The notes beneath the pieces are model-generated. The model did no database searches. It saw only the letters and a program-made list of their open reading frames with translations, and was not told the origin of the DNA. Both the position numbers and the translations under genes were made by a program. Below are positions 3,921-62,704 of a stretch of DNA of 64,000 nt, in pieces. The stretch comes from Leucoraja erinacea (lineage: Eukaryota). The DNA lies in contig NC_073393.1 in the NCBI RefSeq assembly GCF_028641065.1, positions 28,830,001 to 28,894,000 on the forward strand. Direction: 5' to 3'. The first letter of the stretch is position 1. Each line of letters starts with the position of its first letter.

Positions 3921-4040
3921 GTACTGCAGATGCTGCTTTACACCAGAGAGAGACACAGAATGCTGGAGTAAGACAGGTTAGGCAACATTTCTGGAGCAAA
4001 TGGATAGGTGACATTTCGAGTCGAGATCCTTCTTCAGTCT
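3921..4040 (-). mobile_element. Penelope-derived short repeat with degenerate hammerhead core
   Basis: Matches family at 33301-33533; reverse complement of 4007-4040 is AGACTGAAGAAGGATCTCGACTCGAAATGTCACC. Confidence 0.7.
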
Positions 4041-4059
4041 CAAATTTTTGGTGCCGAGG

Positions 4060-4710
4060 TACATAGAACAGTACAGCACACACAAACTGGCCCTTCAGCA
4101 CACTATGTTGCTGCCAACCATGATGCCAATTTAAACTGCACATATGCCTGCACATGGCCTATATACCCTCCATGTTCACATGTTTGTCTAAATGCTTCTT
4201 AAAAGCTGTTGTTTTATCTGCTTCCACCACTTCTCCTGGCAATATGCCCCAGGCACCAACCACGCTCTGTGTAAAAAAATTGCTATGTAAATCTCCTTTA
4301 AACTTTACCCCTATCACCTTAAAGTTATGCCCTTTGGTATTTGATTTTCCATCGTGGAAAAAAGACTACCTACCCTGGTTATGCCGCTCATAACCTTGTG
4401 TACTTTTTTCAGCGCGCCCCATCAGCCTCTGACCTTCCAGAAAAAACAATCTAACATTGTTTAACTTCTTCTTATAGCTAATGCTCTCTAATCCAGGCAC
4501 CTCTTCTGCACCATCTCCAAATGCTCTACATCCTTCCTGTAATGCATCAAACAGAACTGCACACAATACTTCAAATGAGTTCTAACTAAAGTTTTATACA
4601 GCTGCATTATAACTTTCCAACTCGCCATTCCAATCAATTAAGGCAAGTATGCCATTTCCATTTCCAATCATACTATCTACCTGTGCTGCCACCTGTATGG
4701 AGTTGTAGAA
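4060..4710 (-). mobile_element. Old CR1 LINE 3' fragment
   Basis: CR1 3'UTR (acatagaacagtacagcaca...ggcccttc) and degenerate ORF2 end. Confidence 0.75.
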
Positions 4711-4982
4711 GGTAATCGTACAGGAAATTTCACATCTAATTTAGAGGGAAACTCAAGGAGAGGGAATGAATTTCAAGAGCAATAAAAGGCAGCAAATGTA
4801 ACCAAGCCAATAACTGCAGTCTAATTAGAGCCTTTATAACTGATTGACTTTATTTACTGTAATAGGTTTATTTACTGTCATTTTGATTGAATGTCACAAC
4901 CTACCATCTTTGATACAGATCACAGTGTTGAAATAACTCAGCGGGTAAGGTGACATCTCTGGAGAACATTGGTAGGTGACAT

Positions 4983-5149
4983 CACGATGACGCAGCAGTA
5001 GAGTTTCTGCCTTACAGTACCAGACACCTGGGTTCGATCCTATCTACAGGTGTTGTCTGTACGTAATTTGTACGTTTTCCCTGTGACCTGCGTGGGTTTT
5101 CCTCCGAGATCTCTGGTTTTCACCCACACCCCAAAGATGTGCAGGTCTG
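4983..5149 (+). mobile_element. tRNA-derived V-SINE (HE1-like), 5' part
   Basis: tRNA-like head with B box GGTTCGATCC followed by the family central domain. Confidence 0.75.
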
Positions 5150-5988
5150 CAATGTGGACTTACAATGGATTATTTGCCCTCTGTAATCATTCAGCAATGT
5201 ACTGGAAGCTTGATGTTGGCACAGTCCTTAATTTAAGTGCTATAAAATATAATTCCAAACGAGGTAAATATTGACTAGCTAATCTGTAATTCGGTAAATA
5301 TATTTTATCGCCTATGGCACAATTCCACATATGGCTTGCTGGGAAAAGTCTATCAGATACAGTGACCATGCTTCACACAAATGTTACCTTAAAGCATGTG
5401 GATTGGAGGTTAGAGTATGACCTTGAGTTAAATCATGTGATCCAAGGTTGCTTGAAACCTATGAAATTATTGCATTAATAAAACCTAAAAATATTTGAGT
5501 TTTTCCACCAGCTGTTCATAAATATTTTATCATTTTTTTGCTGGTACACAAAGATATCGGACCTTGGATGAAGCAAATGTTATATTGCTGCTCGCTTTTC
5601 ATGAACAGAGAAAATCACATGATTGGCACTCAATGGCTCTTTATTATCACACATGCACAGGTACAGTGAAATTATTTTAATGGATACAGTTCAGTAAAGT
5701 ATTGCCAAACCCAAGGACAATCCCCAATAGTACAAAGAGCATGTAAATAGTCCGCTGAGACCGCATGCGAGAGTTGCCAGGTTCTGGCATCATTTTCAAA
5801 GCTCAGCGCTTGGTCTTCAGGTACTGGAGCCTCAGTGACTTTAGGGTGTGGTTCTCATGTACAGATTTTATGGCAGGTTTTAAATAAATAATTTAAATAA
5901 ATGGCACATACTCAAAGTTACATTTCATGGTGCAAAGGTTGGCCTTATTGCCCTGACAAAACCATGGATAATGTTAAAGGGCCTACAA

Positions 5989-6671: not shown

Positions 6672-7700
6672 GCCTGCACTTCATTCTCCAGCACCTAGAG
6701 CGCCAGGGGACCTATGCGAGGATTTTGTTTGTTGATTTTAGCTCTGCATTCAACACCATTGCGCCAGAGCTACTACACTCCAAACTTTCCAAGTTGACTG
6801 TGCCTGAACCCCTCTGTCGGTGGATCACCAGCTTCCTGACAGACAGGGAGCAGCATGTGAGGTTGGGAAAGCACATCTGGATTCGCAGTCCCCTAGCATA
6901 GGAGCAAGGCTGTGTATTCTCCCCTCTCCTCTACTCTACACCAATGACTGCACCTCCACTGACTCCTCTGTCAAGCTTCTCAAGTTTGCGGACGACACAA
7001 CCCTGATTGAACTGATCCAGGATGGGGAGGAATCTGCCTACAGACAGGAAGTGTCGCAGCTGGTGTCCTGGTGCCATCGCAACAACCTGGAGCTCAATGC
7101 TCTTAAGACAGTGGAATTGATTGTAAACTTTAGGAGAGTTCCCCCTCCCCTCACCCCCCTCACCATCAACAACACCACAGTCACATTTGTGGAGTCTTTT
7201 AAGTTCCTGGAACCATCATCTCCAAGGACCTTAAATGGGAGGGCTACCATCGACTGACTCCACAGTCAAAAAGGCACAACAGAGGATGTATTTCCTGCGG
7301 CAGATGAGGAAGCACAATCTGCCACAGGCAATGATGGTCCAATTCTACACGGCCATCGTAGAGTCTGTTCTCACCTTCTCCATCGTGGTCTGGTTTGGCT
7401 TAGCCACTAAGCACGACATCCGGAGGCTGCAGCGAATCGTCCGATCAGCTGAGAAGGTTATTGGCTGCAACCTTCCCCGCATTGATGAATTGTACACTGC
7501 AAGGGCCAGGAAGCGAGCGGGTAAGATCATCTCTGACCCCTCTCACCCTGTCCACAAATTCTTTGAATCATTTCCCTCTGGAAGGCGACTCCAGACTGCC
7601 AAAGCTGCCACAGCCAGACATAAAAACTGTTTTTTTTCCCCAGGAGTAGCTCTACTCAATAACCAAAAATATGTAGCCTCCTTTTGCGTTTTATGTGTTA
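6672..7700 (+). mobile_element. Rex1/Babar-type non-LTR retrotransposon RT fragment
   Basis: YARILFVDFSSAFNTI, KFADDTT, NNLELNALKTVELIV, KKAQQRMYFLR, PSGRR motifs with frameshifts. Confidence 0.85.
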
Positions 7701-7884
7701 ACAGTTGGGGAAAGCTTTGAAACTTGAATGATACAAGATAGCACCAGAAACATGGGGATACTTGGGCACTCTTGGGCACTGCCTCACAGTAATCTACTAT
7801 ATCTACACTCTTTGTACCTGGGTCTGATTATGCCTATGACCTTACTGAATTGTATTCACTGTACCTACAGTAGGTATGTGTAAC

Positions 7885-11185: not shown

Positions 11186-11660
11186 CCGCGACTTTTTTGA
11201 TCGTTAGACACCATGAATATATGTGCAGATGTTGGAACAAAGTCCAATTCTCTGCAATTTCTACTCTAATTTTGCTCTGCGATACAAGATGTGTCTCAGA
11301 AGGACTGGCTTATTTGTTCACTTTATAGTGTATTTAAGCCATTCTAAAATCTCTTCTTTAGCCATCACTTTCCCTTGCTGAAACCTCAGCTTCATTTCAT
11401 CGTTGAAGTGAAAATGAAAAGTCTTTAGTGAATAGCTTGCCAAAATAACCAAATGCCTTTTTAGTTCCTGATTGGCTCCACAGTTCTCCTATCACTGCGT
11501 ATATGCAGTTTACATGCAGATTATGCTTTTATATTTACCATGTATCTTTTTCTCATAGCTGCCTCTTTGCTCTTGTGTTTCCTTTTTACTTCACCTGTAA
11601 AATTTCTATAATCAATCCATTTCTCAGTTTTGCACTCAATCTGACATCTTTCATACAACT

Positions 11661-11901
11661 GATAGACACAAAATGCTAGAGTAACTCAGTGGGTCAGGCA
11701 GCATATCTGGAGAAAAGGAATAGGTGATGTTTCAGGTTCGAACCTTTCTTCGGAGCTGATCTTCAGGAGTCTGAAGAAGGGTTCCGATCTGAAAATTAAT
11801 TAATTTCTTTTCTCCAGAGATGCTGCCTGACCAGCTGAGTTACTCCAGTGTTTTGTGTCTATCTTTGGTATAAACCAGCATCTGTAGTTTCTTCCTACAC
11901 A
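11661..11901. mobile_element. Palindromic Penelope-derived repeat (two inverted arms)
   Basis: gatagacacaaaatgctagagtaactcag ... ctgagttactccagtgttttgtgtctatc; CTGAAGAAGGG near the centre. Confidence 0.8.
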
Positions 11902-12930: not shown

Positions 12931-13120
12931 CACAAGGAACTGCAGATGCAGGCTTACAAAAAAACCTCACAGAGTGCTGGAGTAACTCAGCGAATAAGGC
13001 AGCATCTCTGGAGGAAATGAATGTTTCAGATCAGGACAAGAAGGGTCCTGACCCAAATCATCACCTATCCAAGTCCACCAGAGATATTGGCTGATCCGCT
13101 CCTCTAGCACGTTGTGCTTT
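12931..13120. mobile_element. Degenerate palindromic Penelope-derived repeat
   Basis: aaggaactgcagatg...ctggagtaactcagc arm plus inverted partner arm. Confidence 0.65.
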
Positions 13121-13779
13121 TTTTCCCACCCTCCAGATTATTCTTGTGAGAGTTGACTGAGCACATTAATACCTCAAATATTGACTACCAGAAAACAGAC
13201 GTCTGTACTCATATTTGATGTGCTAAGTGAGAATATAATCAATCTGGTCTGGAACCCATCTTGAACTCAGCCACAATGTTGTCAAATAATTTCTGCTGGA
13301 GATGTCTGATGCCTGGTTTGATATTCCCCAATTAACATTGCCTCATTGTCTTTAGTTTGTCGTTGCATACAAGAATGCTTTATGGTCATGTGGCATACAA
13401 ATCATATTGTGCTGAAGAATCCAGACCTGAAATGTTATCTGTTCATTCCCTCCATAGATGCAGTCTGACCTGCTGAGTTCCTCAACATCTGCAGTCCCTT
13501 GCATCTCCTAAAACTCATATCTCGTGAGTGGCCCCCTGCTGTGAGCCAGACGTCAGCTCACTATAGATTGTGGCGCTTATTCATGCAGTTGTGCTTTTAC
13601 TTTCAAAACTGCTTGTAGTTTACTTTTGGAAATAGGTCACAAAGACCGTTTTTTATTGGGTTTAATAGTGACTATATCTCAAATGTGATGCTTTGACTAT
13701 GGTTAGTTCTCCCTAACAGGTTATGTGTAACAGGTGCACTCCCTTCCTTTCTCCCTCTCCTCTTGCCCCCTTCAACAAC

Positions 13780-14075
13780 CCTTGCTGTTCTCCACATGGT
13801 ATTCCTCTTGAGATCACACCTTCCCGAGCCAACAATGGGCCTACCAGGACACCACCATGCCTGAGGTTATTTGTGGTTGGCCCTGACTGGCCCTGGTCTT
13901 TTCTTACCTCCAGCTATTAACCAGCCCCCTCCCCCAACTTTTAATCTGAAGAAGGGTCCCGACCCAAATTATCATCCATCCTTCTTCTCCAAAGTTGCTG
14001 CCTGACCTGCTAAGTTATTCCAGGACTTTGTGCCTATCTTTGGTATAAACCAGCATCTGCAGTTCTTTGTTTCCT
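13780..14075 (+). mobile_element. Penelope 3' region with degenerate hammerhead core
   Basis: CTGAAGAAGGGTCCCGACCC at 13946 followed by the family tail ...cagcatctgcagttc. Confidence 0.7.
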
Positions 14076-15470: not shown

Positions 15471-16039
15471 TAATAATAATAATATATTTTATTGTCATTG
15501 CACATCAGTGCAACGTGATTTGGAATGCAGCTTCCATCCGATGTCATAACATAAATAACTAATACAATTTAGATTTAGATATCCCGAGAACATGGATTGT
15601 AAAAAGAACAGTAAAACAGTCAAAACAGTTCAACAGACTAAAGTTCAGATGTGTCTGTGCGACGTGACCATCCGAGGGAGACAGTCCAGGGGGGGTGGGG
15701 GGCACTCAGCAGGGCCGGTTCAGGGCCACTATAGCTCTGGAAATGAAGCTGTTCCCGAGTCTGGAGGTTCGGGCGTAGAAGGCCTTGTAACGTCTGCCGG
15801 AGGGAAGTAGTTCGAATAGTCCATTACAAGGGTGTGAGGAGTATTTATGGATGCTGACGGCCTTCTTGAGGCACCGTGTGTGGTAGATGCCCTCCAAGGC
15901 TGGTAGCGGTGTCCCAATAATCCTCTGCGCTCTGTGGACAATGCGCTGAAGAGCTCTCCTCTCCGCCTCCGTGCAGCTGAGATACCACACAGAGATGCTA
16001 TATGTTAATATGCTCTCCGTGGTGCAGCGGTAGAAGGTC
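15471..16039 (-). mobile_element. Rex1/Babar-type LINE 3' fragment
   Basis: FYRCTTESILTYSISVWY...LQRIV...LLPSGRRY...SFI; (TAT)n tail at 15471. Confidence 0.85.
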
Positions 16040-16844
16040 TTAGGTCTACTTCTGTAACCTGTGAACTTGTGAACAAGTGACATAAATGCTTTGAGGAGTC
16101 TGGGCTGAAACATGGCACAGTATATGTAGCCTCTGACTGGTCTTGTCACCATCTTATTTGAGTGTCCATCCCAGTTGAACAATAATGACTGCTAGGAAGG
16201 TTGGGGAATTAGTGATGATAATGCTATTGCACGCCAAGAAGAGGTGGAAATGGCTATTGCCTGGCACTTGTTGCTTGCCTGAGCCTGAATGTTGACTAGA
16301 AACACATGTGGCTTTCCTCCAGGCACCCCGCTTTCCTCCTACATCCCTAAGACATGCAGGTTTGTCTGTAAATTGCCCCTATTGTGTAAGAGGTGGAGGC
16401 GTAAGTGGATAACATGGAACTAGTGTGAACGGGTGATCGAAGGTCAGCGTGGACCCGGTGGCCCTAAGGGCCTGTTTCCATGCTGTATCTCTGAACTAAG
16501 CTAAACTAAACAATGACTACTAGTGCCAGATTTCACATAAGAGGAAACATCCTCTCGGCATCCACCTACTCAAGACCACTCAGGATCTTGGGTTTAGTTT
16601 ATTGTCATGCATACCGAGGTACAGTGAAGCTTTTGTTGCATGCTAACCTGCCTTATATGCTTCAATCAGTTGACTCTAATGTTCTAAACTCCAGGGGATA
16701 CAAGCTTAGTTTCCTTAACATTTCCTCATCACACACCTGCCCATTCCAGGAGTCGGTCTAATAAACCTTCTCTGCTTCCAACACGACAACATTCTTTCTT
16801 AAATAAAGAGACCAATACATTACATGATACTTCTGATCACTCGT

Positions 16845-17645
16845 AACAAGGACAGGGTCCTCCTTGTCCTCCCTTCCACCCCACCAGCCATTACACACAA
16901 CAGATAATCCTCCAACATTTTTGCCACCTCCAACGGGATCCCACAACTGGCTACATCTTCCCATCTCCTCCCCCTTAGGCTTTCCACAGAGACCGCTCCC
17001 TCTGTAACTCCCTGGCCAATTCGTCCCTTCCCATCCAAACCACCCCCTCCCTCGGTACTTTCCCTTGCAACCGCAGGAAATGCTCAAATTGTCGCTTTAC
17101 CTCCCCCCTCAACTCCATCCACGGACACAAGCAGTCTCTCCAGGTGAGGCAGAGGTTCACCTGCACCTCCTCCAACATCATCTATTGCATCTGCTGCTCT
17201 AGCTGTCAACTTCTCTACGTCGGTGAGACCAAGCGCAGGCTTGGCGCTCACTTTGCCCAACATCTCCGTTCGGTTCGCAATAACCAACCTGATCTCCCGG
17301 TGGCTCAGCACTTCAACTGCCCCTCCCATTCCGTATCCGACCTTCTCCATGGCCAGAGTGAGTCCCACCTGGGCAGTTTACACCCCAGCGGTGTGAACAT
17401 TGACCTCCAATTTCAGGTAGTCCTTGCTTTCTCCCTCCTTCCCCTCCCCTCCCCAGCTCTCCCACAGCCTACGGTCTCCACCTCTTCCTTTCTTCTTCCC
17501 GCCCCCACCCCACATCAGTCTGAAGAAGGATCTCGATCCGAAATGCCACCTATTCCTTTTCTCCATAGATGCTGTCTCACCCGCTGAGTTTCTCCAGCAT
17601 TTTTGTCTACCTTCGATTTTTCCAGCATTTGCAGTTCTTTCTTAA
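16845..17645 (+). mobile_element. Penelope-like element remnant: GIY-YIG endonuclease + 3' repeat with hammerhead motif
   Basis: FTCTSSNIIYCICCSSCQLLYVGETKRRL..F..H..VAQHFN (PLE GIY-YIG); downstream CTGAAGA-A-GGAT-CTCG-ATCC-GAAA at 17520-17543. Confidence 0.88.
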
Positions 17646-17714
17646 CTGATACTTCTGATAGTTGGGTTACAAGACCTGCTACAAGAATTCTGGACTATCC
17701 GGAGAGAGGCGTTA

Positions 17715-26439: not shown

Positions 26440-26648
26440 AAAACAACTGCAGATGCTGGACTCATGGATAGGGCAGATGTTGGTTTATACCGAAGATAGA
26501 CACAAAGTGCTGAACAATTCAGTGGATCAGGCAGCATCTCTGGAAGACATGGCGAGGCGACATTTCGGGTTGGGACCCTTCTTCAGTCTAAAGGGTCCCG
26601 AACTGAATCATCGCCTATCCCCGCCCTCCACAGAAGCTGTCTAACCTA
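26440..26648. mobile_element. Penelope-derived repeat with minus-strand hammerhead core (26559-26586) and partial inverted arm
   Basis: Reverse complement reads CTGAAGA-A-GGGT-CCCA-ACCC-GAAATGTC. Confidence 0.72.
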
Positions 26649-27429
26649 GTTTAGTTATTTATTTCATTTCTTAATGTGAGAGATTGCTGTTCTCAATTCA
26701 ATAGATTGTGACATTGCAGAAGTTCAGATTTGATGAATCGTATATATGTAGTTCCATAACCTTGTGCGGTATGTGTATATCTTGGAAGATTATTTAGGGG
26801 TGAGGTCCCTGCCTGTTCTTGCCCACACCTCCTCACCTTCCAAACACCTTCTCTGCAACATGACAGAAAGTATTCCTTTAGATGGGAAGCACTTTAAGAT
26901 ATTATACCGTTATAGGATGTATCAAGTAAACAGAGATTCATTGTAATTTGCTGTAGAGTAAGCTTAGTGAATGCTGTTTTTTTTAGTATTGTGGACATGG
27001 TTTGTGGGATGAATTCATGCATTGTGATAAGCCCTAATTCTTGTTTATTGCATGAAGAATATGAACATCAGAATGGCCGTCCTCTGTGTAGCGGCCAGGA
27101 ATGATATGGCTTGAACTTCCTTTGTCACTCCATTCTTGATCCCCGCAATGCCAAGGTACGAATTCGAACAGGTGGATCCTTCAAAGACGTACAGGTTTGT
27201 AGGTTAATTAGCTTGGTATAAATGTAAATTGTCCCTAGCGTGTGTAGGCTAGTGGTAGTGTGTGAGGATCACAGGTCGGTATGGATTCGATGGACCGAAG
27301 GGCCTGTTTCCGCATTGTATCTATGAACTAAACTCAACTAAGTTGAGAAAGGGAATGCTGGAGGTGAGCACTATGATTGCCTGGCAACAGGACACTTAGC
27401 CACCCACATATGAAGAAGATGCAATAGAC

Positions 27430-27670
27430 TACACATGCTGGAATACGAGGCAAATAAAACACAAAACTGCTGGAGGAATTGAACGGGTCCGGCAGCATCT
27501 GTGGAGGCAGAGGGGTGGTGGATATTTTGGGTCTGGACCTTGCATTGGGACAGATGGACTGCATCAGGGCCAGATGAAGGGTCTCGACCCTGAACCCAAA
27601 ACATTGACCTTCCCGCTGACTCTACCAATGCTGCTTGTGTCACCGAGTTCACCCAGCAGTTTGTTTGATG
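27430..27670. mobile_element. Older palindromic Penelope-derived repeat
   Basis: aaactgctggaggaatt...ggcagcatc arm with inverted arm; cagatgaagggtctcgaccc near the centre. Confidence 0.6.
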
Positions 27671-32950: not shown

Positions 32951-33399
32951 TCTCTTGTTTCTTTAAAAGTCGAGTCCAAACCATTCCAAACTCTCAGCTT
33001 TGCATATTCCACTCCATGATGAACTGTTGCACCAGAAATCTGCTAACGGGGCTAAATCACACATCTTGAGTAACATTTAAGAAAGTCAGCTGTTTGACCT
33101 ATTGAGAAATTTCTGGAAGACAACACAGGAAGACAACACTTTTAAAGAATACAGAACAATCCAAAGCCTTGTGTTTTTCAGTGAGCATGAAATGCTGACT
33201 ACTGCAAATTCTATATCAGGCTAGGGTTTGTTTTAAAAAAAAATTGCTGCTGCCTGAAGGTGAAGCACGTTCCAATTATGTGGTAACCTTCTTTAAAAGG
33301 TGTTCAAGAAGGAACTGCAGATGCTGGAATATCGAAGGTACACAAAATTGCTGGAGAAACTCAGTGGGTGCAGCAGCATCTATGGAGCGAAGAAAATAG

Positions 33400-33431
33400 G
33401 CGACGTTTCGGGCCGAAACCCTTCTTCAGAC
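33400..33431 (-). ncRNA. Minimal type-I hammerhead ribozyme motif (antisense twin)
   Basis: Exact reverse complement of the core at 33438-33465. Confidence 0.65.
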
Positions 33432-33435
33432 TGGA

Positions 33436-33467
33436 GTCTGAAGAAGGGTTTCGGCCCGAAACGTCGC
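33436..33467 (+). ncRNA. Minimal type-I hammerhead ribozyme motif
   Basis: CUGAAGA(33438-44)-A-GGGU/UUCG/GCCC-GAAAC-GUC; predicted cleavage after 33465. Stem I is only about 2 bp. Confidence 0.65.
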
Positions 33468-34054
33468 CTATTTTCTTCACTCCATAGATGCTGCTGCACC
33501 CGCTGAGTTTCTCCAGCAATTTTGTGTACCTTCTTTAAAAGGTGTTGCATTGTGCTTTGTTTCTTTTTGCAGGAATTTCTTTGTCTAGTGGACTTGGCCC
33601 TCAGTTCAGCTGTTATGATAAAACACGGAAAACATTCTGGTCAGCTGAAGGGATAGATGTAAAACTGAGTCAGCTACCCAATTATTTAGATGTGGCATTC
33701 CACTTGCGCAATGCCACCATGCAGCAAATGGGAAAGAGTTATGTACAAATGTAATATAACCCCAAATTTTTCGTAATATTCATTTGAATAGTATCTGCAA
33801 TTTTGACTGCGGGACTATTAGATTCCAGGTGTTTCATGAATGTTCTTTATAAAGTTGTCCTTATGAGACACAAACTCTACGTGACTCTAGACAATGACGC
33901 AATGGTTGACTGTTGGCCTCCATTTTGTTTAGGGGGAATTTGACATAGGCAATAAGTGCAAACCTTGCCTGTGGCACACGCGGTGGTGTGATAAAGAGGA
34001 GAGGGTTTGTTTAGACTCCTCAAGGGAAGTATACTCTGTGGCAACTGAGACTCA

Positions 34055-34353: not shown

Positions 34354-34837
34354 AATTGATGGTTCCTTTGTAGCTTTAAGAATTCGAATTCAGATACAAG
34401 GGCAAGGTATCGTTTGCCACTTCCAATATAGCACTGAGACCTGCGCTAACTTTCAGGTAGGTTATGAAACTGAGATCCTTCTTTCTGTCTTTGGAAGATT
34501 TTAGGTGCTGTTTATTATTTTCCAAGACTTTTGCTTTATCTCAATTGCTGAAATTCTCAGGTAAGGTTTAACACAAGTTAAAACCATGGTATGTAGGAAA
34601 GAAATGAAGATAGATGCTGGTTATACACCAAAGATAGACAACAAAAATGCTGGAGTAACTAAGTGGGACAGGCAGCATCTCTGAAGGGAAGGAATTTATA
34701 GTTTTATTAAGTCTTTGCTTCCTGTGGCATCTTTTTATTTTCTGTACCTCAGCATTAGGGGATAGAGATGAATAGCAGATTCAAATCATCAGCAAACTAA
34801 TAAAGTTTGTAACAGACATACAATTTTTCTCTAATAG

Positions 34838-35057
34838 GACACAATGTGCTGGAGGAACTCAGTGGGTCAAGCAGCATCCCTGGACAACATGGAAAGGTGA
34901 CATTCCGGGTCGGGACCCATCTTCAGAAGGTTGAGTCCCGTCTGAAGAAGGGTCCCAATCCAAAACGTCACCTATCCATGTTCTCCAAAGGTGATGCCTG
35001 ACCTGTTAAGTTCCTCCTGCACTTTATGTTCCAGCATCTGCAGTTCCTTGTGTCTCC
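34838..35057. mobile_element. Palindromic Penelope-derived repeat
   Basis: Inverted arms around ...cccatcttcag / ctgaagaagggtcccaatccaaaacgtcacc. Confidence 0.78.
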
Positions 35058-38757: not shown

Positions 38758-38855
38758 CAGTCTGAAGATGGGTCGCGACCCGAAACGTCACCCATACCTT
38801 CCCTCTAGAGATGCTGTCTATCCGGCTGAGTTACTACAGCATTTTGTGTTTATTC
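38758..38855 (+). mobile_element. Penelope-derived repeat with intact hammerhead core (38762-38789)
   Basis: CTGAAGA-T-GGGT-CGCG-ACCC-GAAAC-GTC. Confidence 0.78.
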
Positions 38856-38865
38856 ACATTGATGT

Positions 38866-39202: not shown

Positions 39203-39975
39203 TGGAGAAACAAGGAACTGCAAATGCTTACTAAAAGAACACAAAGTGCTGGAGTAACTCAGCAAGTTATTTGCAGCATCTCTGGAGAACATGGATAAGA
39301 TGACGAGTTCAGGTCAGGAATCTTCATCAGACTGATTGTCTTGGGAGGAAAGAAAGAGAGGAGCGTTGTCAGTATAGATTAACACAGGTAAGGGACGTTA
39401 TTGATCTTTGATGGTTTTTGATCCATCTGCCTATTACCTGCCCTGCTTTGTCCTGCTCCCTTTATATTCCAGCTTTCTTCCTCCTCCCCACTCCTACAAT
39501 TAGCTGAGGGAGGATCCTGACCCGAAACGTCATCTATTCATGTTCTCTGGAGATGCTGCCTGACCCGCTGAGTTACTCCAGCACTTTGCAATATTTTATT
39601 ATGCAGTCATCTTGACAACATTACACATGCTTAATAAACGATACTGAATGCCTAATGAGAGTGTTCCATTTCTAGAGTCTAGTTTTCCAAAGCTGGTGTT
39701 CAAAATTCATAAAAAGGTACTAGGCTAGATTTTAAAAAAAAAACACACAAAATACTGGAGTAACTCAGCAGATCAGGCAGCATCCCTGGAGAACATGGAC
39801 AGGTAATGTTTTGGTTGGGACCTTTCTTCAGACTCTGATTATGAATCCAGGTCAGAAGAAGGGTGCTGACCCAAAAGATCACCTATCTATATTGTCCAGA
39901 GATGCTCCCTGACTCACTGAGCCACTCCAGCACTCAGTGTCTTTTTTTGTAAACCAGCATCCTCAGTTCCGTGTT
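39203..39975. mobile_element. Cluster of two inverted-arm Penelope-derived repeats (about 39203-39590 and 39740-39975)
   Basis: ctggagtaactcagc / gctgagttactccag arms; gacccgaaacgtc core remnant at about 39520. Confidence 0.72.
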
Positions 39976-47545: not shown

Positions 47546-49034
47546 ATCTGGGTCACTGACATCGTTGATGGAAGTAAATCTGCAATCCTTAACCAGTTAG
47601 TCCTAAATGTGAGTCTGTATCTTTCATTATGACCGCCTCTTACTCCCTCCATAGTTCAGGGACAATTTTGAGGACATGTGAAGAAACAACGAACTGCAGA
47701 TGCTGGGTTACAAAAGAGTTTGAGGTTGTACATTATCCCTGTGACTGCGTGGGTTTTCTCTGGGTGCACTGGTTTCCTCCCACATTCCAAAGACATGAAG
47801 GTTTGTAGGTTAATTGGGTTCTGTAAATTGCCTCTAGTGTCTAGGATGCAAAACAGGGATAACATAGAACTTGTGTATCACTGTTGCATCGGTGCAGACT
47901 TGGTGGGCTGTATCTCAAAAAACTAAAATCAAGGAGTGTTTGAGTAGCTCAGTAGGGTTGGGACTGAGTCTGAAGAAGGGTCCTGACCCAACACTTCACC
48001 TGAAATGCTGCCTGACCGGCTGCCCTACTCCAGCACGCCGCGACTTCTGCAGAAGACATATGAACAGTGCCAGTTTGTGTTAACTTTGCAAACACGCACA
48101 ATGGCTTACATAAAGCGAGTATGAGTGAACGCTTCTGCTAAGCAACTGCAAGAAACCTGTACCAGTCCTCACAAGGTGCCATTTTAATACTTGTTTCTAT
48201 GTGTTACAGCTTGCAGGTCAATCAGTCATCGCAATGGTTTAATGCAATTGTAGTGGCTCAACAATCACTTCTCAAAGATTCTTAGAGATAAGTATGAAAT
48301 GGTTGCCAAAGAAGCCCACATCCTGTATATGAACTTGAGAAGTGTGAAAACACCATTATTACAATTGTTTAACTCTGTTAGTTTTTGTCATGATTGAATT
48401 ATGCCTGCATTTATGCTTAATTTTACAATGGTCAATAGAAAATAGACAATATATTGATTGAAAAAGTAATTTAAGTATAGGTTACCAAGGAATTTTGTCC
48501 GTCTCTGGAAGAAAGAGATGGTCAGAATGAATATGCCAATCTAAGTAATGGATAAAGGTTTCCTATCAGAGCCAATGAAGTGAAAGCAAAATAGAAAACA
48601 AATGAGAAATCAAAAAAGAGTAATTGACAAATAAAGTATAAATGAGGAATGAATCATCTCAAGTTATGAAATTCACTTCTCTATAAATACTGTGATGGTA
48701 AATGACAAGGGAAACAACCGGCTTTATGAAATATACCCATTAATGAAGCAAGTCGCAATTTAAAATGGAATTAAAGGGCTTCATCATTCACTCGATTCAA
48801 ATGAAATAGTTTTATCTACATCGAGATGCGAACCAATTTCATGTAGTTTCTGGTTAATCCCTTTAACATATGTTATTTTCTGCTCTTTAATCAATCTATT
48901 ATATGGCTTTACAAATTTAATTAAAGGGTGGTAGGTATATGGAATCAGCTGCCAGAGGAGACAGTTGAGGCAGGTACTTTCACATTTAAAAAGCATTTGG
49001 AGGGGTCCATGGATAGGAGAGGTTTAGAAGGATA

Positions 49035-49609: not shown

Positions 49610-49746
49610 ACAAAATGTTTAAGAAGGAACTGCAGATGCTGGAAAATCGAAGGAAGACAAAAATGCTGGAGAAACTCAGTGGGTTAGGCAGCATCTATGG
49701 AGCGAAGGAAATAGGCAGTGTTTCGGGTCGATACCCTTCTTCAGAC
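49610..49746 (-). mobile_element. Penelope-derived repeat with hammerhead core
   Basis: Reverse complement GTCTGAAGAAGGGTATCGACCCGAAACAC; close to the left arm of 33301-33533. Confidence 0.8.
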
Positions 49747-50039
49747 AGGTGGGACTAGTATAGATGAAACATGTTGGTCTGTGTATGCAAGTTGGGCCAA
49801 AGGGGTTGTTTCCATGTTGTATGACTCAATACCTCTCTAAGACAGTAGTACAAATCATTCTGATGCAATAGAACAAAATGTCCATCCTAGCCAGCCATCT
49901 TCCCATCAAATGATGCACCAGAAAAGTGCTGAATGGTTGCTTTCATGACCTTGATGTTCCAATTAAACGAGTGTTGATTTAGAGACACAAATCCGACAGA
50001 TGCTGGAATCTTGAGTTAAACCAAACTGGTGGAGAAACT

Positions 50040-52100: not shown

Positions 52101-52651
52101 ATGCAGGCAACATTGCAGGGTGTCATTCACTAGCACTTGTTACCTGTTCTATCAGGTTGTTCGAGTCACAGGCTTCACAGTTACTGTTGAAAAAAGCTTG
52201 GCTTCATTGCTGCAAAGAGGCTCCATCTCATCATGAAGAAGTCAGCCTTCCATAAATGTGGAACCTTGGTAAAGGTTTACCTTCCTTGCTTTCACATTGA
52301 ATCCAATCACTTTACGACTGGCAAAGTACTCTACCAATTCTGTCGCAAATATGCACAGAAAGAGGGTCTGCAGCTCAGATGCTGCTTGTCTGCAGAGTTC
52401 CTCCAGTAGTTTGTTTTTCTTGACACAATATTCATACAAGACTTGACAGAGTAGATGCAGAAATTATATTATCCCTGCTTGTGGTGCCTAGAATCAAGGG
52501 GTTTCCGTGACCAAATAAAGGATCAATCATCTAGAACAAACTCGAGAAGAAATGCCTTCAACAGGGGGTATTGGATTTTAGGAACCTTCCACTCATATGG
52601 GATGGGGAGCCCCCTTTCACTGAATATATTCATGACAAGAGATTTTTATAC

Positions 52652-52803: not shown

Positions 52804-53422
52804 TTAAGAAATGAAAGGATATAGAGAAAGTACAGGAAAAAGTTAAGAGTCAAGTGTGTTTAATTGTCATGTGTACCAAAACAGAACAAAGAAACTCGTG
52901 CTTGCAACAGCATCACAGGTCTGTAAACACAGAACTCAATAGATGCCATAATTTTTTTAAAGTTCAATAAATAAAATAAAACCCAATATGAGAGCAAAAT
53001 AAAACTAAAGCCTGAAATACCACTGTGGTAAATTATCAACTGTGATCTTATTAAATGATGGACCAGCAACCGATGGCTGAATGATTATTTAAGCTTCCAT
53101 TTGTTGTTTTTTGCCACTATTATATTAGTTCTAGAATAGTCAACTTCAGAAAACAGTGCAGCAGTGCTTAAGTAATGTGCTATTTTTTAAGACTTGACCT
53201 TTATTGGTTATCCACATATTTTACTTCGGAGTCACGTGAGTGACTACGTGAAGAACCCCGCCAGGACGCATGCGTGTCATATCGCTAAACGCATTGCGAA
53301 ACAGTCAGGCGCGGTGGAACTACGTTGCCCCGCAGCAGCAGTTTTAAAAGCCAGAACCTGCAGGTAAGAGATACTCTGCGGTCTTTTGTGTTTTCCCATA
53401 CTGATTTACAGGTGGGGAGTCA

Positions 53423-53920
53423 ATGGAGAAGTCAAAGAAAACAACGAGGGCTGCGACAAAGCTGGTGGGGGAGGACCGCGGAGTAGCGGGCAGCCAGCAG
53501 CGGCCAGCGGCACATGAATCACCCATAATGGGAACAGCTGTGCCCGATGTCGCCTCCGTACCGGCCAGATCCACTCCGCGGCCGGGCGGTAAGGCAAAAC
53601 AAAAAACCAACAAAGTCGTGGACTCAGATGAGTCCGACTTAGAGCAGCCGCGAGCGGCCAGCGACCGTGAGCGATGGAGCAGGATGGAGCGGTGTGTGGA
53701 GCACTTGCTCCAACGTGACAGGCTCCGGGAGATGGAGTCTAGTCACTGTGGGCACTATGTAAAACCCACAGCAGCACATCTTGTAGGGCTGCACAGTGCA
53801 TCTCCCTTGTCGGAGGGGAGTACTGGGGGTCAGTTCTGGGCTGATCCTGAAGAGGGGTTTGCAGAAGAGAAATCAAGTGTGCAGGGGGTGCAGGAACGTG
53901 AAAATCTACTGGACATCTGA
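53423..53920 (+). pseudogene. DIRS ORF1 (gag-like) N-terminal fragment truncated at the deletion breakpoint
   Basis: First long ATG ORF after the left ITR; low-complexity N-terminus; stops where MT-tail homology begins. Confidence 0.6.
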
Positions 53921-54083
53921 TACACAACATGGTATTAGAACCATGTATCACCATCCCGAATAGACCAGATTTATTGGTTCATCCCGTAACAAGGAATAGC
54001 CACCCATGCCATAACTATATGAATTTATTAATTTGTAGAGTCAAAAAATACCTCTACTACAGCTGGGACTGACGGACCGAACA

Positions 54084-54986
54084 GTGAACATGATTTCGGC
54101 GGCCCACAGACAGTCCACCAAAAAACAGTATCTGGTCTATATCAGGAAATGGGAGATGTATTGTCACAGAAACAGCATCACCTACAGATTAATGAACATC
54201 TCGTCTGTTCTGGAATTCCTGGCAGGCCTCCATTATGATGAGGGGCTCAGTTATAGTGCCATCAACTGCGCCAGAAGTGCCCTATCAACTTATCTATGGC
54301 AAGGAACAGAGCGTCATTCTGTTGGGACTCACCCCCTGGTAACAAAACTTATGAGGGGAATTTTTAATACCAATCCCCCAAGAACCAGGTACTCTCAAAT
54401 ATGGGATGTATGTATTGTCCTGACTATGCTCAGGAATTGGTCTCCATCAACAGCTCTGTCCCTACATAGACTGACATAAAAAACATTCATGCTAATGGCT
54501 TTGGTCACAGCACAAAGGGTACAGTCGTTACATAAATTAAGACTGGACAACATGACTTCTTCATCTGGAAATATTACGTTTCATATTTATGAATTAGTTA
54601 AGCAGAACAGACAGGGATCAGCAGGCCTCAATATAGAATTTAGGTCTTACCCAACAGATGATCGTCTCTGTATAGTAAGACATTTGTTGTTATACATGGA
54701 GAACATGAAAATCATCAGAGGCAATGAGAAGGCACTTTTAATCAGCCACAAGCAACCACACAAAAAAGTGAAGGTCCAGACCATCTCAAGATGGCTGAAA
54801 CAGGTTCTAATACAGGCTGGGGTGGATACTAATATTTTAAAATCTCATTCCACCAGGACTGCAGCTCATTGGCAGCTATGCAGTTGGATGTACCAATGGA
54901 CCAAATGGTCAGGGGAAAAAAAACATTCCAACTATTTTATCATAAACCAGTCATTAAACCTGGAACGTTTGCAGAAACAATTTTAA
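54084..54986 (+). pseudogene. DIRS tyrosine recombinase with in-frame stop (54477-54479) and C-terminal frameshift
   Basis: STKKQYL, GLSYSAINCARSALS, HPLVTKLMRGIFN, TAQRVQ, ISRWLK, HSTR; homologous to 1659-2646. Confidence 0.9.
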
Positions 54987-56402: not shown

Positions 56403-57065
56403 ACTGTAAACTTTATTTAAAAGTTGCTTGTATTTCGAAAGATTTAATGCAGATCTTACCGTGACATACTGTAATTAATCATGAGCAGTTGATTGTGCGT
56501 TAATCAGGATTGCGGATTGTACAATCATTATGCCAGCATGCAAAGATTTACAAATCCAAACTATGTTCTGAAGCTAAAATGAGGGTATTGTGTTAGTGAG
56601 GACAATGAGGTGTCTTGGAATATTGCCCTTCACAAATACAGATGGCAGATGGCAGAAAACTGATAGAAAAATCAGAAAATGCTGGAAGAACTCGGCAGGT
56701 CAGGAAATATCCATGAAAGAAAAATGATTATGATTTCAGGTCTGGGAACCTTCATTCGATTTGAGTTAGGATTTACCTCAGCTCAGCCTGTTGCTCAGTT
56801 GGAAAGGTAGACCAGTGTGAAAGGTGTTATTGGCGTCAAAGGCAGATTGGAAAAAAGGTCAATTTTGGAGGGAGAAAACACAAGACATTGCAGATGCTGG
56901 AATCATGAGCGAAAAAATCAAGGGCTGGAGGAATTCAATTGGTCAGGCAACATCTGTGGAGGGAAATGGACAGATGATGTTTCAGCTCAGGAATCTTCAT
57001 CACATCATCTATCCATTTCCCTTCACCAGATGTTGCCCTGATCCACTGAATTCCTCAGGCAGTTT

Positions 57066-57953
57066 CAAGAGAGTCAAGAGTCAAGAGTCAAGAGTCAATT
57101 TAATTGTCATTTGGACCCCTGGAGGTCCAAACGAAATGCCGTTTCTGCAGCCATACATTACACCAAATAGACCCCAGACACAACATAATTACATTTTACA
57201 TAAACATCCATCACATAGCTGTGATGGAAGGCCAAAAAACCTTATCTCTCCACTGCACTCTCCCCCCCCCCCCCCCCCCCCCCCCCGATGTCAGTCAGAG
57301 TCAAAGTCAAAGCCCCCGGCTGGCGATGGCGATTGTCCCGCGGCCATTGAAGCCACGCCGGGTGGTGCGAGGTGCACACCGGGTCTTGGTGTTGGAGCCC
57401 CCGGGAAAATCCCGCGGCCATTCCAGCCGCGCGGGGCAGTGGTGTCAGGCCCCGCTCCAGGAGCTCTTCAACCCCGCAACTCGGGCGGGAGAATTCGCCG
57501 TTGCAGGAGCCCCGAAAAGCGGTCTCCCTCCAGGGATCCGCGGGCTCCCGGTGCCGCCGTCCGCAGACCCGCAGTAGCAGCCTCCGACTCAGCAGCAGCA
57601 GCGGCATCGGCAGCAGCAGCAGCGCTCCTCCACCGCTCCACCCGCTCCGGACTCGGCCAGCCCCGCGACGGCAACGGTGAGTAGCACGAGAGTCCCCGGC
57701 TTCTTCCTGTTGGAGGCCGCTCCTCGTTGCGGCCCCAACGACAACGGAAACCCGACGAGAAAAGGTCGGGTCTCCCGTGCAGGGAGAGATTTAAAAAGTT
57801 CCCCCTCCCTCCCCCCCCACCCCACCCCCACCCCCCCACACACACACCCCAACAAAAAAATAACAAAAACTACATTAAAACACAGACAGAAAATAATAAA
57901 AACGCGGACAGACTGCAGAGGCCGCTGCTGGCCAGAGCCGCGCCGCCCACCGG
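57066..57953 (-). mobile_element. CpG-rich non-autonomous non-LTR retroposon with Rex1/L2-type 3' tail
   Basis: (TCAAGAG)n tail at 57066-57097; hairpin tttggacc-cctgga-ggtccaaa; GC-rich 5' part; 5-bp TSD AGTTT (57061-57065, 57954-57958). Confidence 0.75.
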
Positions 57954-58154
57954 AGTTTGTTGGAATTGGAGTAAATTCAAGTCAATTGAAAAGCAATAAA
58001 ATACAAATGAAGCAGAATTATTTTTACTGGTGGGATAGACTCAAAAATATGAATAGCCTTCTCCTGTTCCCATGTTCCTGAAAAAGAGTCCCTTCCTTCA
58101 TCAAAAGTACCTTCCACTTGGTCAGAGAGCAACAACCCAACTAAAGAGTTACTT

Positions 58155-58275
58155 CAATTCTGATGATGTTTCCTGGACTTGAAACGTTAATTGTTTCTCT
58201 TTCCACAGTCGCTGCCTGACCTGCTGTGTTCTTCCAGTGTTTTCTGTTTTTACTTCATATTTTCAGCAGCTGCAT
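58155..58275 (+). mobile_element. Older Penelope-derived repeat with hammerhead-like core and intact stem I
   Basis: CAATT-CTGATGA-...-GAAACGTT-AATTG (58155-58193) followed by the gctgcctgacctgctg family tail. Confidence 0.6.
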
Positions 58276-58809
58276 CTGTTCAAGAACATTTTTGTACCTC
58301 AAATTAACCAACTGCACTTGAGAGAAGGGCAACAGGGAGCAGTATATTCTACTGGGAACCTTTGATATTGTTAGGCTTCCTCTTGGATGACAAAGAGTGG
58401 AGCGCCCTGAATGAAGTACATTTACTCAGAATAATAGTAATCATAGTTTGTGGCATTGGGTTTCTGCACACCAATTGTGAAGCGGCAAAGATTAGTTATT
58501 GGCAATTAAAAAAAAATGCCTATGGCTCTTAAATGTGAAGAGACACAGAGGGCAAATTGAGGGCTGGAGGGCAATAAAGAAGCTGAGATCTTGCTGTGAC
58601 AACCAAGGCCATGTGGGATATGTTAAAACTGGAAACCTCCTGGAGACGATGCAATGAGAAATTCATCACGGCAAACTGTAAATTGAATTTGATAATTACA
58701 ACTAAGGAAGAGAGCTTGTCAATTCCTCAGGGCTTTCAGTCTCGTATAATAGCCTCTAAGATCCTCGCAACATGATACAGGCTTTTGGCAAGCTTCAAAC
58801 ATCAACATG

Positions 58810-59110: not shown

Positions 59111-60253
59111 GAGGAAAAAACATGCATCTACCCCAGTTATTTAGTCCATGCAAGTCTTTCCTTTACTTGATCAATTTGGTTGAGTCAATGTTTCAGGTCA
59201 CCGATCTTTCGGCAGAACTGTGAAATGTTACGTTTGGAGTTGCAGAGAAGAGTGAGGGATGGAGAGGAAAGAGAGAAGGTCTGTGATGGAATAGAGATTG
59301 GAAAGAGTGAATTACATAAATGCGGGGAAAGGATTTTGACGCTGTTAAGTGCATCTGACTAAGGCATTGGGAGGATGTGTCAATGAAAGGATATGAATAT
59401 GAAGAGAAGAGAGGGAAAAAAAATATCGCTCCAACCATGAGACACAAAACAATGCGGTTCCTGGAATTTCATGTAAAAAAGAATGTTCAAAATACCTAGC
59501 AGCATCTGCGGAATTAACGTTAAAGATAATGACCCAAAATTGTTTCAGTACATTTCACCACTAGCATCTATCCAATAATGCATACTTATTTCTGGTCTAC
59601 GAGAAGTAAGTTCAATTTGGCAACTTGCCCCTTTGCTCTCCCACTAGGCCACCCTCAATCAGTGACGTAATGGAGGAAGTTGTCAATTGGCTGTCAGGAT
59701 CGAACCTGGGTCTCTGGGGCTCTGAGGCTGCAGCTCTACCAGGTGCGCCACTGTGTCAGAAGTTGTCAATAAGATTGCTGCCAGGTGCACTCTGTTCCAG
59801 ATCTCAGCGTAGTCTTGGTCCAGACATGGTCAAAGGAGCAGAATGGAATTCTAGAGTAAAGTACATTGAAAGAGACTGCCCCAATATGAAGGTGACACTT
59901 GACTACAAATTTGCCAAGGAGCCCAATGACTAAAAGTATATCCTTCTTCCAAATAGTGCCTATAATGCAGTAAAAGCAATGCAGTGTGACGAAGGAGAAT
60001 GGTTAAAAGAAAGATTAAAAATGATAAGAGTAGACCAGAGTGTAGCTCCCATAGCTCAGAGCCTTAGCAACCAATGTCTGAAGATGGATTGATGAACAGA
60101 CTTTAATGATCAATGATACACCAAATAATTCACATATATACATGTGCAGAGGTGCAACCTTTCGGCATTGTTACTGACTGGGATCAGCAGAGGGAGCTCT
60201 GGTTAAATTTGCCTTTTTAAATCTGTTGAATTACTTAAAGTTGCATCCTTAAG

Positions 60254-60548
60254 TTTAGTTTAGATTTTGGAGGTGCACCTTGGTAACAGGCCCTTCAGCC
60301 CACTGAGTCCACGCTGACCATCGTCCACCCATTCACACTAGCTTTATGTTATCCCATTCCTTACAAACTAGGGGGAATTTACAGAGGCCAACTAACCTGC
60401 TTGGGCTGTGGGTGGAAACCGAAGCAGCTGAAGGAAACCCAGGCGGTCACAAGCAGAACTGGCAAACTCCACACAGAGAGCACCCAAGATCCTGGGTCTC
60501 TGGCGCTGTGAAGCAGCAGCTCTACCAGGTGCGCCACTCTGTCGCCCT
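60254..60548 (-). mobile_element. V-SINE (HE1-like)
   Basis: Family structure. Confidence 0.78.
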
Positions 60549-60637
60549 TAAAGCAGCTGGTTTGAAATAACCAAACTTGGCAAAGTTTTTTTTTAAATTC
60601 AGTAACTGGAAGTGGGCATCAGCAGCCAGGTCAGTAT

Positions 60638-61378
60638 AGGGAGGTTGCACGTAAGGTCATCGGGTCAAAGGACGTGATGCACGGAGCAGCACAATCCATC
60701 TGGAGGACATGGCAGCTTCCGGCATACAATGCTAACATACGAAATGCGTACTTTTTTACCTGTTAAAAACTGCCAAAATGGTCAATTTTTGCGCTGTAAA
60801 TAATTGTGGAGGGTGACTGAGTGCTCTGAACCAAATGCTCTAGTATCTTTGCTCTGAACCCAAGCACCAAGGTGTAAGCGGCCGAAGGAGCGCATCCCTC
60901 AGGGCAGCCCCCACACCTCCCCTAGGGTCAGCGCTGTCCAGCTATGGCCATGGCATCCCTTCGCCTACCCTCTCCTGTGCGGCCGCACTGTCACGGGCTG
61001 TGGGTCGGCAGCGCCCACACACAGGGCTGGGTGGAGCGGGGCCACGGCTCCGGGCAGCGGACACATGGAAACAAAAACCCGGTAACGTCCCCGTCAGCTG
61101 CAACAGAGTTGGGGACAGTCTGGTCCCTCCGCCCACCCAGAGTCACTGACCACGCTGCATCGGCAACCCCCACCCCCGGCCGCGGGGTTAGACGGCCCGG
61201 GGTCCGCGAGTGTGGAACCATTCAGCTTGAAGTCCAGATGCTGGGACAGAAGACGGGACTGTTACAGTGGGAACCATGGGAAGTGCTGACCTGCAGTTCA
61301 CCTCGTGTACTCCAGTTGGCGTTGCGTGGCAACAGTATGGGTCACGGGTCATGACCTCGACTGCAGTGCAACCTCCCT
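60638..61378. mobile_element. Non-autonomous DNA transposon (741 bp), ISL2EU/PHIS-like
   Basis: Perfect 13-bp TIRs AGGGAGGTTGCAC / GTGCAACCTCCCT flanked by AT on both sides; removing the element and one AT restores host cagtatttac. Confidence 0.8.
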
Positions 61379-62704
61379 ATTTACAGTCTATCCATGATTA
61401 GCATTTTAGTATGCAATCCATAGACACTCATGTTGAAGAGGCGCAGAATTTAGCAGATAATTGACCTGCCCAATGGCTGGTTAGACAGCAGCTTGAATTG
61501 GGTTCACAAACATTGACAAGAGCTGAGGATGTCCAAAGTTGGTAAAGTGTAAAATGAATGAATAATTACAATTGATGAAGAATGGTGCTTACATGAAAAG
61601 TTACAAAAGTACAGATACACACTCACACTTACAAACACAAATGTACGAATACACCCATGCATGTGCATTCATGGGACTCCAACAATGAGCACAAAGTGAC
61701 ACAGCCTGTGTTTTACTGAGTAGAAGTTTACATTGCTGCCCCAGCTTTAATTTGCCCATTTATGGCCAGATCTTGTGTCATTGTTTGTGGCAGGTCTGGT
61801 TACATAACCAGTTTGCTCCCAAAGAGCCAAGTAATCAAAGCCATGGTATCCATCACCTTGCTTGCTACTCACTACTGTCTACATTATGATTAAAATAACA
61901 ATCAAAATAATAATGGAGATAAGAGAGTGGGTTAGAGGGGAATTTTATCGATCGAGAGTTGCTTTCCTTTCATTTGCAAATGCAATTGCACTTTTCATTT
62001 CAGAACACAAGCCAACTCAATTTATGAATGTAGCAAATGCTCTATTCTGAGCTCTGACAAAGACGAGATTACTACATAGTTAGAAGAATGGCAAAGGCTG
62101 CTTGATGATCATTGAATGGTTTAATGGTTCTTTATTAAGACTTGAACCAAGGTACAGTGAAATTCTGTTTTTGCATACAGATCAGTAAGATACAATCCCC
62201 GATTAAATAGAGAATGCATAGAAACAGCCCGTTGAGTCCAGATTGAAGAGTCGTTTTCAAAGTTGACAAAAAAGTACACAAAATGCTGGTGTAAATTTAG
62301 TGGGACAGACTGGAGAGATGCTGCCTGTCTCGCTGAGTTATTCCAGCAGATTGTATCTTTCTTTGTTGTTCCCTATGGAATGTGCTCCCTTTGAAATTAT
62401 GCATGGAAGCATAGACCCTTGTCCCAGGAACATTAATCATTCAGCACTTCTGGAACCACTGTGCTTTCCCAACTCTGCACTTGTCTAGGCTACTGTATGT
62501 ATCAGGTTAGTCCTTGCTTATCATTCCCCCTTTGAATGCCCCCCTCCCTCCCCTCATACTGCACAAGAGACCATATGTGCTGCCCCTCTGACCTTGATCC
62601 TAGTCATCCAAGCTATCAATCTTCCCAACCCCTTAACTTCACGATAACTTGGGAACCGTCCCCTCCTATTTCAGCTAGTTTTGCCCATAAGATATGGTCA
62701 ACGA

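Follow-up and report, generated by a model that had tools for sequence, protein, structure and literature searches.

The 64,000-nucleotide window of the Leucoraja erinacea genome analyzed here (assembly GCF_028641065.1, contig NC_073393.1, positions 28,830,001 to 28,894,000) is scattered with short repeats that carry a minimal hammerhead ribozyme. Judged by its sequence, this repeat is the pseudo-long terminal repeat (pLTR) and tail of an autonomous Penelope-like element (PLE) and has no family of its own, and its fragments appear to be dead-on-arrival insertions of that terminal repeat (minimal hammerhead plus tail). With regard to their origin, we consider it probable that the copies are PLE terminal-repeat insertions, with priming inside an uncut RNA whose start lies three bases ahead of the ribozyme core. 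A sequence-only reading of the same DNA had recognized about 20 Penelope-derived, hammerhead-bearing repeats and proposed that they form a retrozyme-like non-autonomous family able to process or terminate read-through transcripts; the origin and the ribozyme anatomy are borne out below, and the retrozyme-like status and the transcript processing are not.

To delineate the family, a profile was built from copies in a genome sample of 95 stretches of 10 kb each (950 kb), taken at round coordinates on the large contigs of the 2.19-Gb genome, with reversed sequence as the control. The profile matches the window at 35 places (18 minus, 17 plus), more than originally noticed, and the sample at 451, with none in the reversed control. 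If the sample is typical, this density (4.75 per 10 kb, s.e.m. 0.37) extrapolates to about 1.04 million fragments genome-wide, or 4.1% of the DNA. A strict descriptor of the intact ribozyme matches the window at 4 sites, the 950-kb sample at 38 and reversed sequence at 0, which extrapolates to about 88,000 genome-wide; the very large genomic population surmised earlier is supported. In the genome, the 31-letter core is matched exactly 3,749 times for one of two subfamilies and 10,833 times for the other. The consensus reads CUGA(A/U)GA, one extra base, a 4-bp stem II, GAAA, a loopless palindromic ACGU stem III (its CpG intact in 107 of 199 copies) and GUH, and on these letters is a minimal type I hammerhead of the PLE kind. 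Helix I is only 2 bp long, as had been cautioned, with at most two further pairs past a 2x2 mismatch, as against the 4-5 bp of minimal PLE hammerheads.

The partner element was found with the GIY-YIG frame of the window and a reverse transcriptase (RT) fragment as queries, which returned many young copies, 20 loci of which were fetched. Three of these (L322, L328 and L339) contain the whole unit, namely repeat, leader, open reading frame (ORF) 1, ORF2, untranslated region (UTR) and repeat, with the hammerhead sitting in the pLTR at both ends and 3.85-3.96 kb from ribozyme to ribozyme. Because the whole unit ends in the same repeat, we regard the short repeats as pLTR plus tail rather than as a separate family; indeed, they match the ends of the coding elements subfamily by subfamily. 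ORF2 (frames of 755-1085 aa) encodes, in a single frame, an RT, a CxxxxCxxC linker (present in L321 and L322) and a GIY-YIG domain; in L322 the RVT_1 (E=4.3e-6) and GIY-YIG (E=0.0057) matches are both under the Pfam cut-offs. ORF1 begins at +164, counting positions in a copy from the ribozyme C3 as 0, with the cut between +27 and +28, and is 468-515 aa long in L339, L327 and L334. In L339 (4580-5983) and its relatives, ORF1 has a helical N-terminal part and a proline-rich repetitive tail, lies in a frame other than that of ORF2 and has no Pfam match.

The features by which endonuclease-bearing PLEs are recognized, that is, pLTRs, inverted copies, a 30-40-base tail and short target-site duplications, are all present. 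The source element is probably an autonomous PLE of the Neptune type, a clade suggested by the linker, which also occurs in Nematis, and by ORF1. Neptune-clade PLEs, as described in the sections of Craig et al. (2021, PMC8557442) drawn on here, share with it the RT, the Cys linker, the C-terminal GIY-YIG and the separate ORF1, and likewise show partial tandems, an inverted 5' copy and a 30-40-base tail that is often at one end only. Unlike these, in the skate the short repeat-only products outnumber the copies that bear element body.

The ends of young copies are the principal evidence for how the element is copied. We delimited 95 young arms by going outward from exact matches to +46..+92, a choice blind to the 5' end; the matches used are those listed first out of 4,111 and all lie on contig C1. 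Their 3' ends fall at two sites, +92..+96 (56 arms) and +125..+129 (37 arms), with 2 elsewhere. At the 5' side, 44 arms end at -5..+2, with the mode at -3 (12 arms), and 6 at -12..-6; a further 21 extend deeper into the element body, and the remainder end at +3..+7 (6), +10..+23 (9, mostly at palindromes) and +28..+42 (9). Target-site duplications, with a median of 13 bases including microhomology, flank 68 of the 95 arms and 0 of 95 controls. The cut site is spanned by 86 of the 95 arms, and therefore the template that was copied was uncut; a single arm starts exactly at the cut (+28). Exact matches counted in nested fashion genome-wide drop from 3,749 that reach C3 to 2,763 that reach -3 and 1,568 that reach -7, with point mutations adding a slight loss. 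From this drop, together with the clustering of 5' ends, it follows that most copies stop at the front edge of the ribozyme. Loose ends of reads and contigs from related organisms also pile up at -3/-2. The letters at the edge, TCAGT, fit an initiator consensus, and this motif is common to subfamilies with different UTRs. Two finer signals were set aside: a cap-derived extra G at the edge, where A is as frequent as G, and a secondary 5'-end cluster at +28..+32, which comprises a handful of arms picked out post hoc and is unconvincing (an ungapped walk gives false stops at +42/+43).

The arrangement of neighboring copies adds a second line of evidence. Head-to-head neighbors number 82 in the sample against 7.7 expected, with 8 in the window. 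Head-to-tail neighbors number 34 against 16 expected, 17 of them in one ribozyme-less minisatellite (L112), and once this is set aside tandem neighbors are at chance level; among the 35 window copies there are none. The L112 minisatellite consists of units of about 43 bases made of tail only. Among 22 young head-to-head pairs, 20 have exactly one long tail (p=5e-5), and two long tails occur in 0 of 68 pairs. This exclusion suggests two primers on one RNA. That the tail may be at one end only has been noted qualitatively for PLEs (PMC3846280, PMC8557442).

A pattern just past the tail is matched exactly at 165 places; 36 loci were fetched, 9 of them chosen for clustered matches. About 30 of the 36 are short jump products, whose first segment runs from a start site to a 5' end and is followed by a jump to +190..+310. 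In the case of L342 (190-3731; contig C9, ~41.121-41.124 Mb), a 3.5-kb single insertion with a 16-base duplication comprises about 17 segments, mostly of 250-290 bases, in two divergent arms that begin at +132 and +94, and includes nine exact hammerhead cores; it is apparently a retrozyme-like array written in one event. A second array, L341 (376-2848; contig C1, ~24.09 Mb), has 14 head-to-tail segments that are 100% identical to L339, and no target-site duplication was found for it. Its segments mostly have their 5' ends at +31, just past the cut site, or at -1/-3, perhaps because both cut and uncut templates were used or because copying paused at the fold. Array junctions recur within an insertion but differ too, a pattern that one closed circle explains less well than end-to-end jumping does; the alternatives are circles, subsequent local amplification or an error in the assembly. 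The occurrence, outside the window, of up to ~17 head-to-tail segments in one insertion suggests that retrozyme-like arrays are built by RT jumping.

Short stutter duplications of the first 12-50 bases of the ribozyme ahead of a full copy occur at 551 and 616 places, some of them as 23-51-base mini-arrays. In the first 100 listed of each set, inspected by eye, the duplicate junctions peak at microhomology, with about 10-12 per 100 at the cut site in one set. We also considered whether ribozyme cleavage makes the RNA 3' end for the jump, akin to the R transfer of retroviruses, but found this idea unsupported, as the upstream units end anywhere from +11 to +49.

Taking these findings together, we propose that transcription would start at -3, on the initiator-like motif of the upstream repeat; PLE promoters have been located in the pLTR (PMC2377424). 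By analogy with what has been shown in vitro for the anole PLE (PMC11167929), the element protein would bind the tail, nick both DNA strands and prime reverse transcription internally. On the 5' repeat of the transcript, priming would lead to run-off after 95-130 bases and yield the short copies; if the same RNA served to prime both nicks, each at a different start site, the resulting cDNAs would be joined head to head; and an RT that jumped back to an RNA 3' end would add head-to-tail segments. The start site, the twin priming and the jumping are steps that we infer. For the complete scheme, in which a transcript starting at the front edge is twin-primed and repeated jumps from the 5' end back to the 3' end of short repeat RNAs lay down an array such as L342 within one insertion, our confidence is tentative and somewhat below even. 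If true, animal retrozymes and the partial tandems of PLEs could arise directly in this way, while the ribozyme stays uncut during copying.

Several observations weigh against copying from an uncut transcript that starts at the edge. In the fly element, the start is upstream of the ribozyme, separated from it by 46 bases and an intron, and does not lie at its edge (PMC2377424, PMC4209133). The 5' ends of many jump products fall elsewhere (-35 to -270), so templates have other starts as well, and a few arms and two arrays start at +28..+32, compatible with occasional cut templates. The cap-G signal is weak, with G preceding the -3 edge in 18 of 44 arms versus an expectation of 28% (p=0.04; one of four tests). 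No pile-up of beginnings or ends appears in any of the 4+4 RNA runs mapped. Finally, the Neptune placement is a tentative one, drawn from the linker and ORF1.

An alternative that keeps both the PLE identity and the uncut RNA is rather unlikely, yet is the strongest of the rivals: the edge might arise where a 5'-to-3' exonuclease stalls at a protein-bound or folded ribozyme, or where the RT drops off before the C-rich UTR. A hairpin predicted to start at about +1 and pair with +28..+41 would offer such an obstacle, a C-run lies in the UTR directly upstream of the edge, and the template ends of jump products vary on both sides, as those of trimmed ribonucleoprotein fragments would. Against this, the edge is sharp, has its mode at -3 ahead of the start of the C-run and lies on an initiator-like motif shared across subfamilies whose UTRs differ, and a polymerase moving 3' to 5' should halt on entering a structure, not on leaving it.

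Far less probable, in our estimate, is the retrozyme-like non-autonomous family that self-cleaves, circularizes, spreads alone and cuts host read-through transcripts. The hammerhead anatomy is correct, the intact-looking copies are many, L341 and L342 are head-to-tail arrays with several intact cores, and vertebrate retrozymes are reported as pLTR-derived in a 2026 preprint (Li et al., bioRxiv 10.64898/2026.07.22.740005). Against these stand the repeat being the end of an autonomous PLE in the same genome, and window copies that are solo or head to head, never head to tail. Further, the window has no head-to-tail units of 150-450 bp that each carry a hammerhead, and elsewhere only rare arrays have them; monomer ends are not set by cleavage, given the one cut-site start in 95 and the spread of duplicate junctions; and there is no independent non-autonomous lineage.

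The state of the ribozymes also counts against this proposal. The ten copies singled out by the sequence-only reading are intact in just three instances (33438+, 33429- and 38762+). A catalytic letter is lost in four (G12 in 13946 and 34942; U16.1 in 17520 and 49717), and three (26559, 4007 and 58160) keep the core letters with damaged stems; minus-strand coordinates there denote the cut-site end, 33402 being C17 of the copy with C3 at 33429. In all, 28 window copies span the motif, 8 of which keep the core letters and 3 of which are intact in every respect. Among 204 sampled copies, drawn from 280 that span the motif, non-CpG catalytic letters depart from the consensus in 112 of 1,801 cases (6.2%) and control letters of the tail in 320 of 4,602 (7.0%; p=0.32), and the CpG that carries G12 is intact in 103 of 197 copies, as is a control CpG in 99 of 194. 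Hence, the copies are not under selection and decay neutrally. The loop of stem II does vary as had been claimed (CUCG 60, CUCA 18, CUUG 17 and UUCG 17 in the 204 copies), but this is largely a difference between subfamilies plus CpG decay.

No real covariation of stem II emerged among the subfamilies, which are probably too alike to show it. They differ only by one-sided U-A/U-G changes (153/28 at 10.4-11.4 and 110/34 at 2.1-1.1); these, as read from the alignments, keep pairing in the source elements yet are not covariation. Two-sided stem II cells number 2 in 20 window copies, and the covariation score of these 20 copies, which exceeds 500 of 500 shuffles, rests on related sequences and flank columns. 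None of the 13 matches (E<=10) from an Rfam scan of the window is to a hammerhead family, and the miRNA matches are the inverted pairs. In the predicted fold, by programs that disregard tertiary contacts and proteins, stem II has a probability of <=0.1 and is replaced by a hairpin joining the 5' core with bases past the cut site, and a double hammerhead costs 28 kcal/mol; folding of the naked RNA would thus disfavor cleavage as a dimer.

RNA reads point in the same direction. Reads of related organisms, from two bulk and two single-cell runs chosen by species or study label and maybe not of the window's species, were mapped on L339; the single-cell runs, in which internal priming probably skews the strands, were set aside. 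The repeat is abundant in RNA, with bulk core reads of 2,742/2,777 and 1,512/1,474 in the two orientations, and 94-95% of bulk reads continue into unlike flanks. In run X21, which looks stranded, the ratios of depth before and after the cut site are 0.65 and 0.61 on the two strands, and since these are alike there is no sense-specific loss. No ends at the cut site were seen in the reads, no single place has a fifth of the beginnings or ends, and no circle-type joint is among the best 15 of 135 RNA joints, with the limit that circles and minor cutting would escape poly(A)-type libraries. In these runs the repeat is seen as passive, two-stranded read-through. The ribozyme in dispersed copies is mostly mutated and probably idle, and the copies are likely to be passengers; the ribozyme might be relevant in source elements alone, with help from a protein.

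Slightly less credible still is that the edge is a 3' splice site, with short copies made from spliced RNA, or that the inverted pairs are products of self-priming by fold-back on an antisense template (PMC3846280): a pyrimidine tract and a CAG end exactly at -2, and the fly Penelope intron ends at helix I (PMC4209133), but the AG is kept in many copies, duplications abut the edge with no exon sequence in between, a GT donor near the stop codon occurs in two subfamilies only, no such joint is among the best 15 of the 135 RNA joints, and, in pairs, each of the two sense start sites marks the end of one arm; the splice-acceptor origin was rejected on these grounds.

The copies in the window (Table 1) include a truncated PLE whose GIY-YIG region has a Pfam match below the cut-off (E=0.011) and a young inverted pair that, if read through, is predicted to form a hairpin of -207.5 kcal/mol burying both ribozymes. 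No host gene was identified in the window; a Pfam ALKBH8_N match on one of its LINE RT fragments is probably LINE-derived.

Table 1. PLE terminal-repeat copies and other repeats of the window (positions in the window; a point marks insertions with arms on both strands)
Feature	Position	Strand	Remarks
5'-truncated PLE insertion, 809 bases	16838..17646	+	74.5% identity over 851 bases to full-length L339; in order, end of the RT-endonuclease frame, GIY-YIG (16979-17587), pyrimidine-rich UTR, hammerhead, long tail; 13-bp target-site duplication (16825-16837, 17647-17659)
Hammerhead of truncated PLE	17520-17547	+	U16.1 mutated
One head-to-head insertion, two young arms	33286..33546	.	left arm long tail, right arm short end; 19-base duplication (33286-33304, 33528-33546), partly shared with arm ends
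Intact minimal hammerhead core, C3 to C17	33438..33465	+	scissile bond 33465/33466; stem II loop UUCG
Intact minimal hammerhead core, inverted arm	33402..33429	-	C3 = 33429
Solo copy, short end	38758..38857	+	intact core 38762-38789, loop CGCG
Solo copy, long tail	49623..49747	-	U16.1 mutated
Decayed head-to-head pair	11655..11893	.	8-base flanking duplication
Head-to-head pair	12935..13125	.	part of core missing in both arms
Head-to-head pair	26441..26688	.	minus arm: core letters kept, stem III CpG-decayed
Old head-to-head pair	27427..27666	.	broken core
Head-to-head pair	34833..35049	.	both cores broken (G12 or A13 changed)
Head-to-head pair	39735..39968	.	both cores broken
Old head-to-head pair	56882..57065	.	
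Solo copy	3918..4044	-	core letters kept, stem II pairs 3/4
Solo copy	13942..14068	+	G12 to A
Old divergent solo copy	58153..58281	+	core letters kept, stem II pairs 2/4 as aligned
Decayed or partial copies (profile, about)	4918-4982, 13413-13485, 29140-29205, 34612-34695, 35397-35445, 39233-39334, 39504-39592		
Decayed or partial copies (profile, about)	41045-41141, 43661-43727, 47967-48036, 52376-52419, 56668-56759, 62314-62369		
Tc1-type DNA transposon	18171-19776		open 348-aa transposase frame 18531-19577 (Pfam HTH_Tnp_Tc3_2, DDE_3); inverted matches 18171-18266 / 19681-19776 resemble terminal repeats
Two broken elements, presumably DIRS-type retrotransposons	754-2646, 53344-54986		RNase H-like and tyrosine-recombinase-like frames (weak Pfam matches)
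LINE RT frame fragments, two kinds	3322-3891, 6808-7720, 15706-16191, 42470-42835		
CpG-rich stretches	53001-54000, 57001-58000		observed/expected 0.74, 0.78; second resembles a young GC-rich repeat

Several parallels are offered by known systems, as far as the portions of the reports drawn on here describe them. Cervera and De la Pena (2014, PMC4209133) described minimal hammerheads from the PLE repeats of fish and amphibians; most of these are single and scattered, opposite-strand pairs occur, and activity is low. Common to these and the skate repeat are the lack of loop 3, the palindromic 15.2-16.2, the extra base before G10.1-C11.1, the opposite-strand pairs and the predominance of single dispersed copies, which were interpreted as truncated PLEs; a 2-bp helix I was described there for a fly variant. 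The skate repeat differs in its stem II of only 4 bp and in scale, with thousands in coelacanth and frog versus ~88,000 intact-looking copies and 1 million fragments here by extrapolation; a mapping of copy ends is not among the results described in the portions of that paper drawn on. The motif, its location in the PLE end repeat and the scattered singles have thus been known since 2014, and the scale (~4% of a 2.2-Gb genome) is the exception.

The Poseidon element of the green anole (Frangieh et al. 2024, PMC11167929) shares two internal RT start sites that bound the tail, extension of both strands, uncut RNA as the main template and, in the data that report describes, no RNA reads ending at the cut site; its ribozyme requires protein. 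It differs in that its ORF starts inside the ribozyme, as against +164 for the skate ORF1, and in that no strand difference in start site is described, whereas skate inverted pairs use one site per arm.

Retrozymes have been described as tandem, cut and circularized (Cervera and De la Pena 2020, PMC7229834), and the 2026 preprint links them to pLTRs, reports cleavage in one of nine dimers and invokes later local amplification. Non-LTR retrozymes are likewise protein-less, hammerhead-bearing and pLTR-related, and arrays of the L342 type agree with the working definition of 2026, tandem units each with a full motif; by contrast, the window copies are non-tandem, with minimal rather than canonical ribozymes. 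The skate arrays also look like single insertions with varying junctions, not products of unequal crossing-over. Searches of open-access text (Repbase outside the scope, most hits judged from their listing) for a short repeat of cartilaginous-fish PLEs, for PLE template jumps and for twin priming gave no description of the 5' edge, the one-tail-per-pair count or the jump arrays; the supplements of PMC4209133 and of the 2026 preprint may list such motifs.

Most worth pursuing are the arrays and the rule of one tail per pair. This insertion record bears on the role of the PLE hammerhead, on the origin of inverted repeats and tails and on the origin of retrozymes from PLEs, and such questions become testable with young copies that number in the thousands, are nearly identical and have sharp ends. 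The edges of the copies are likely to record how a PLE copies itself, and the rare one-step tandem arrays may show how retrozymes originate.

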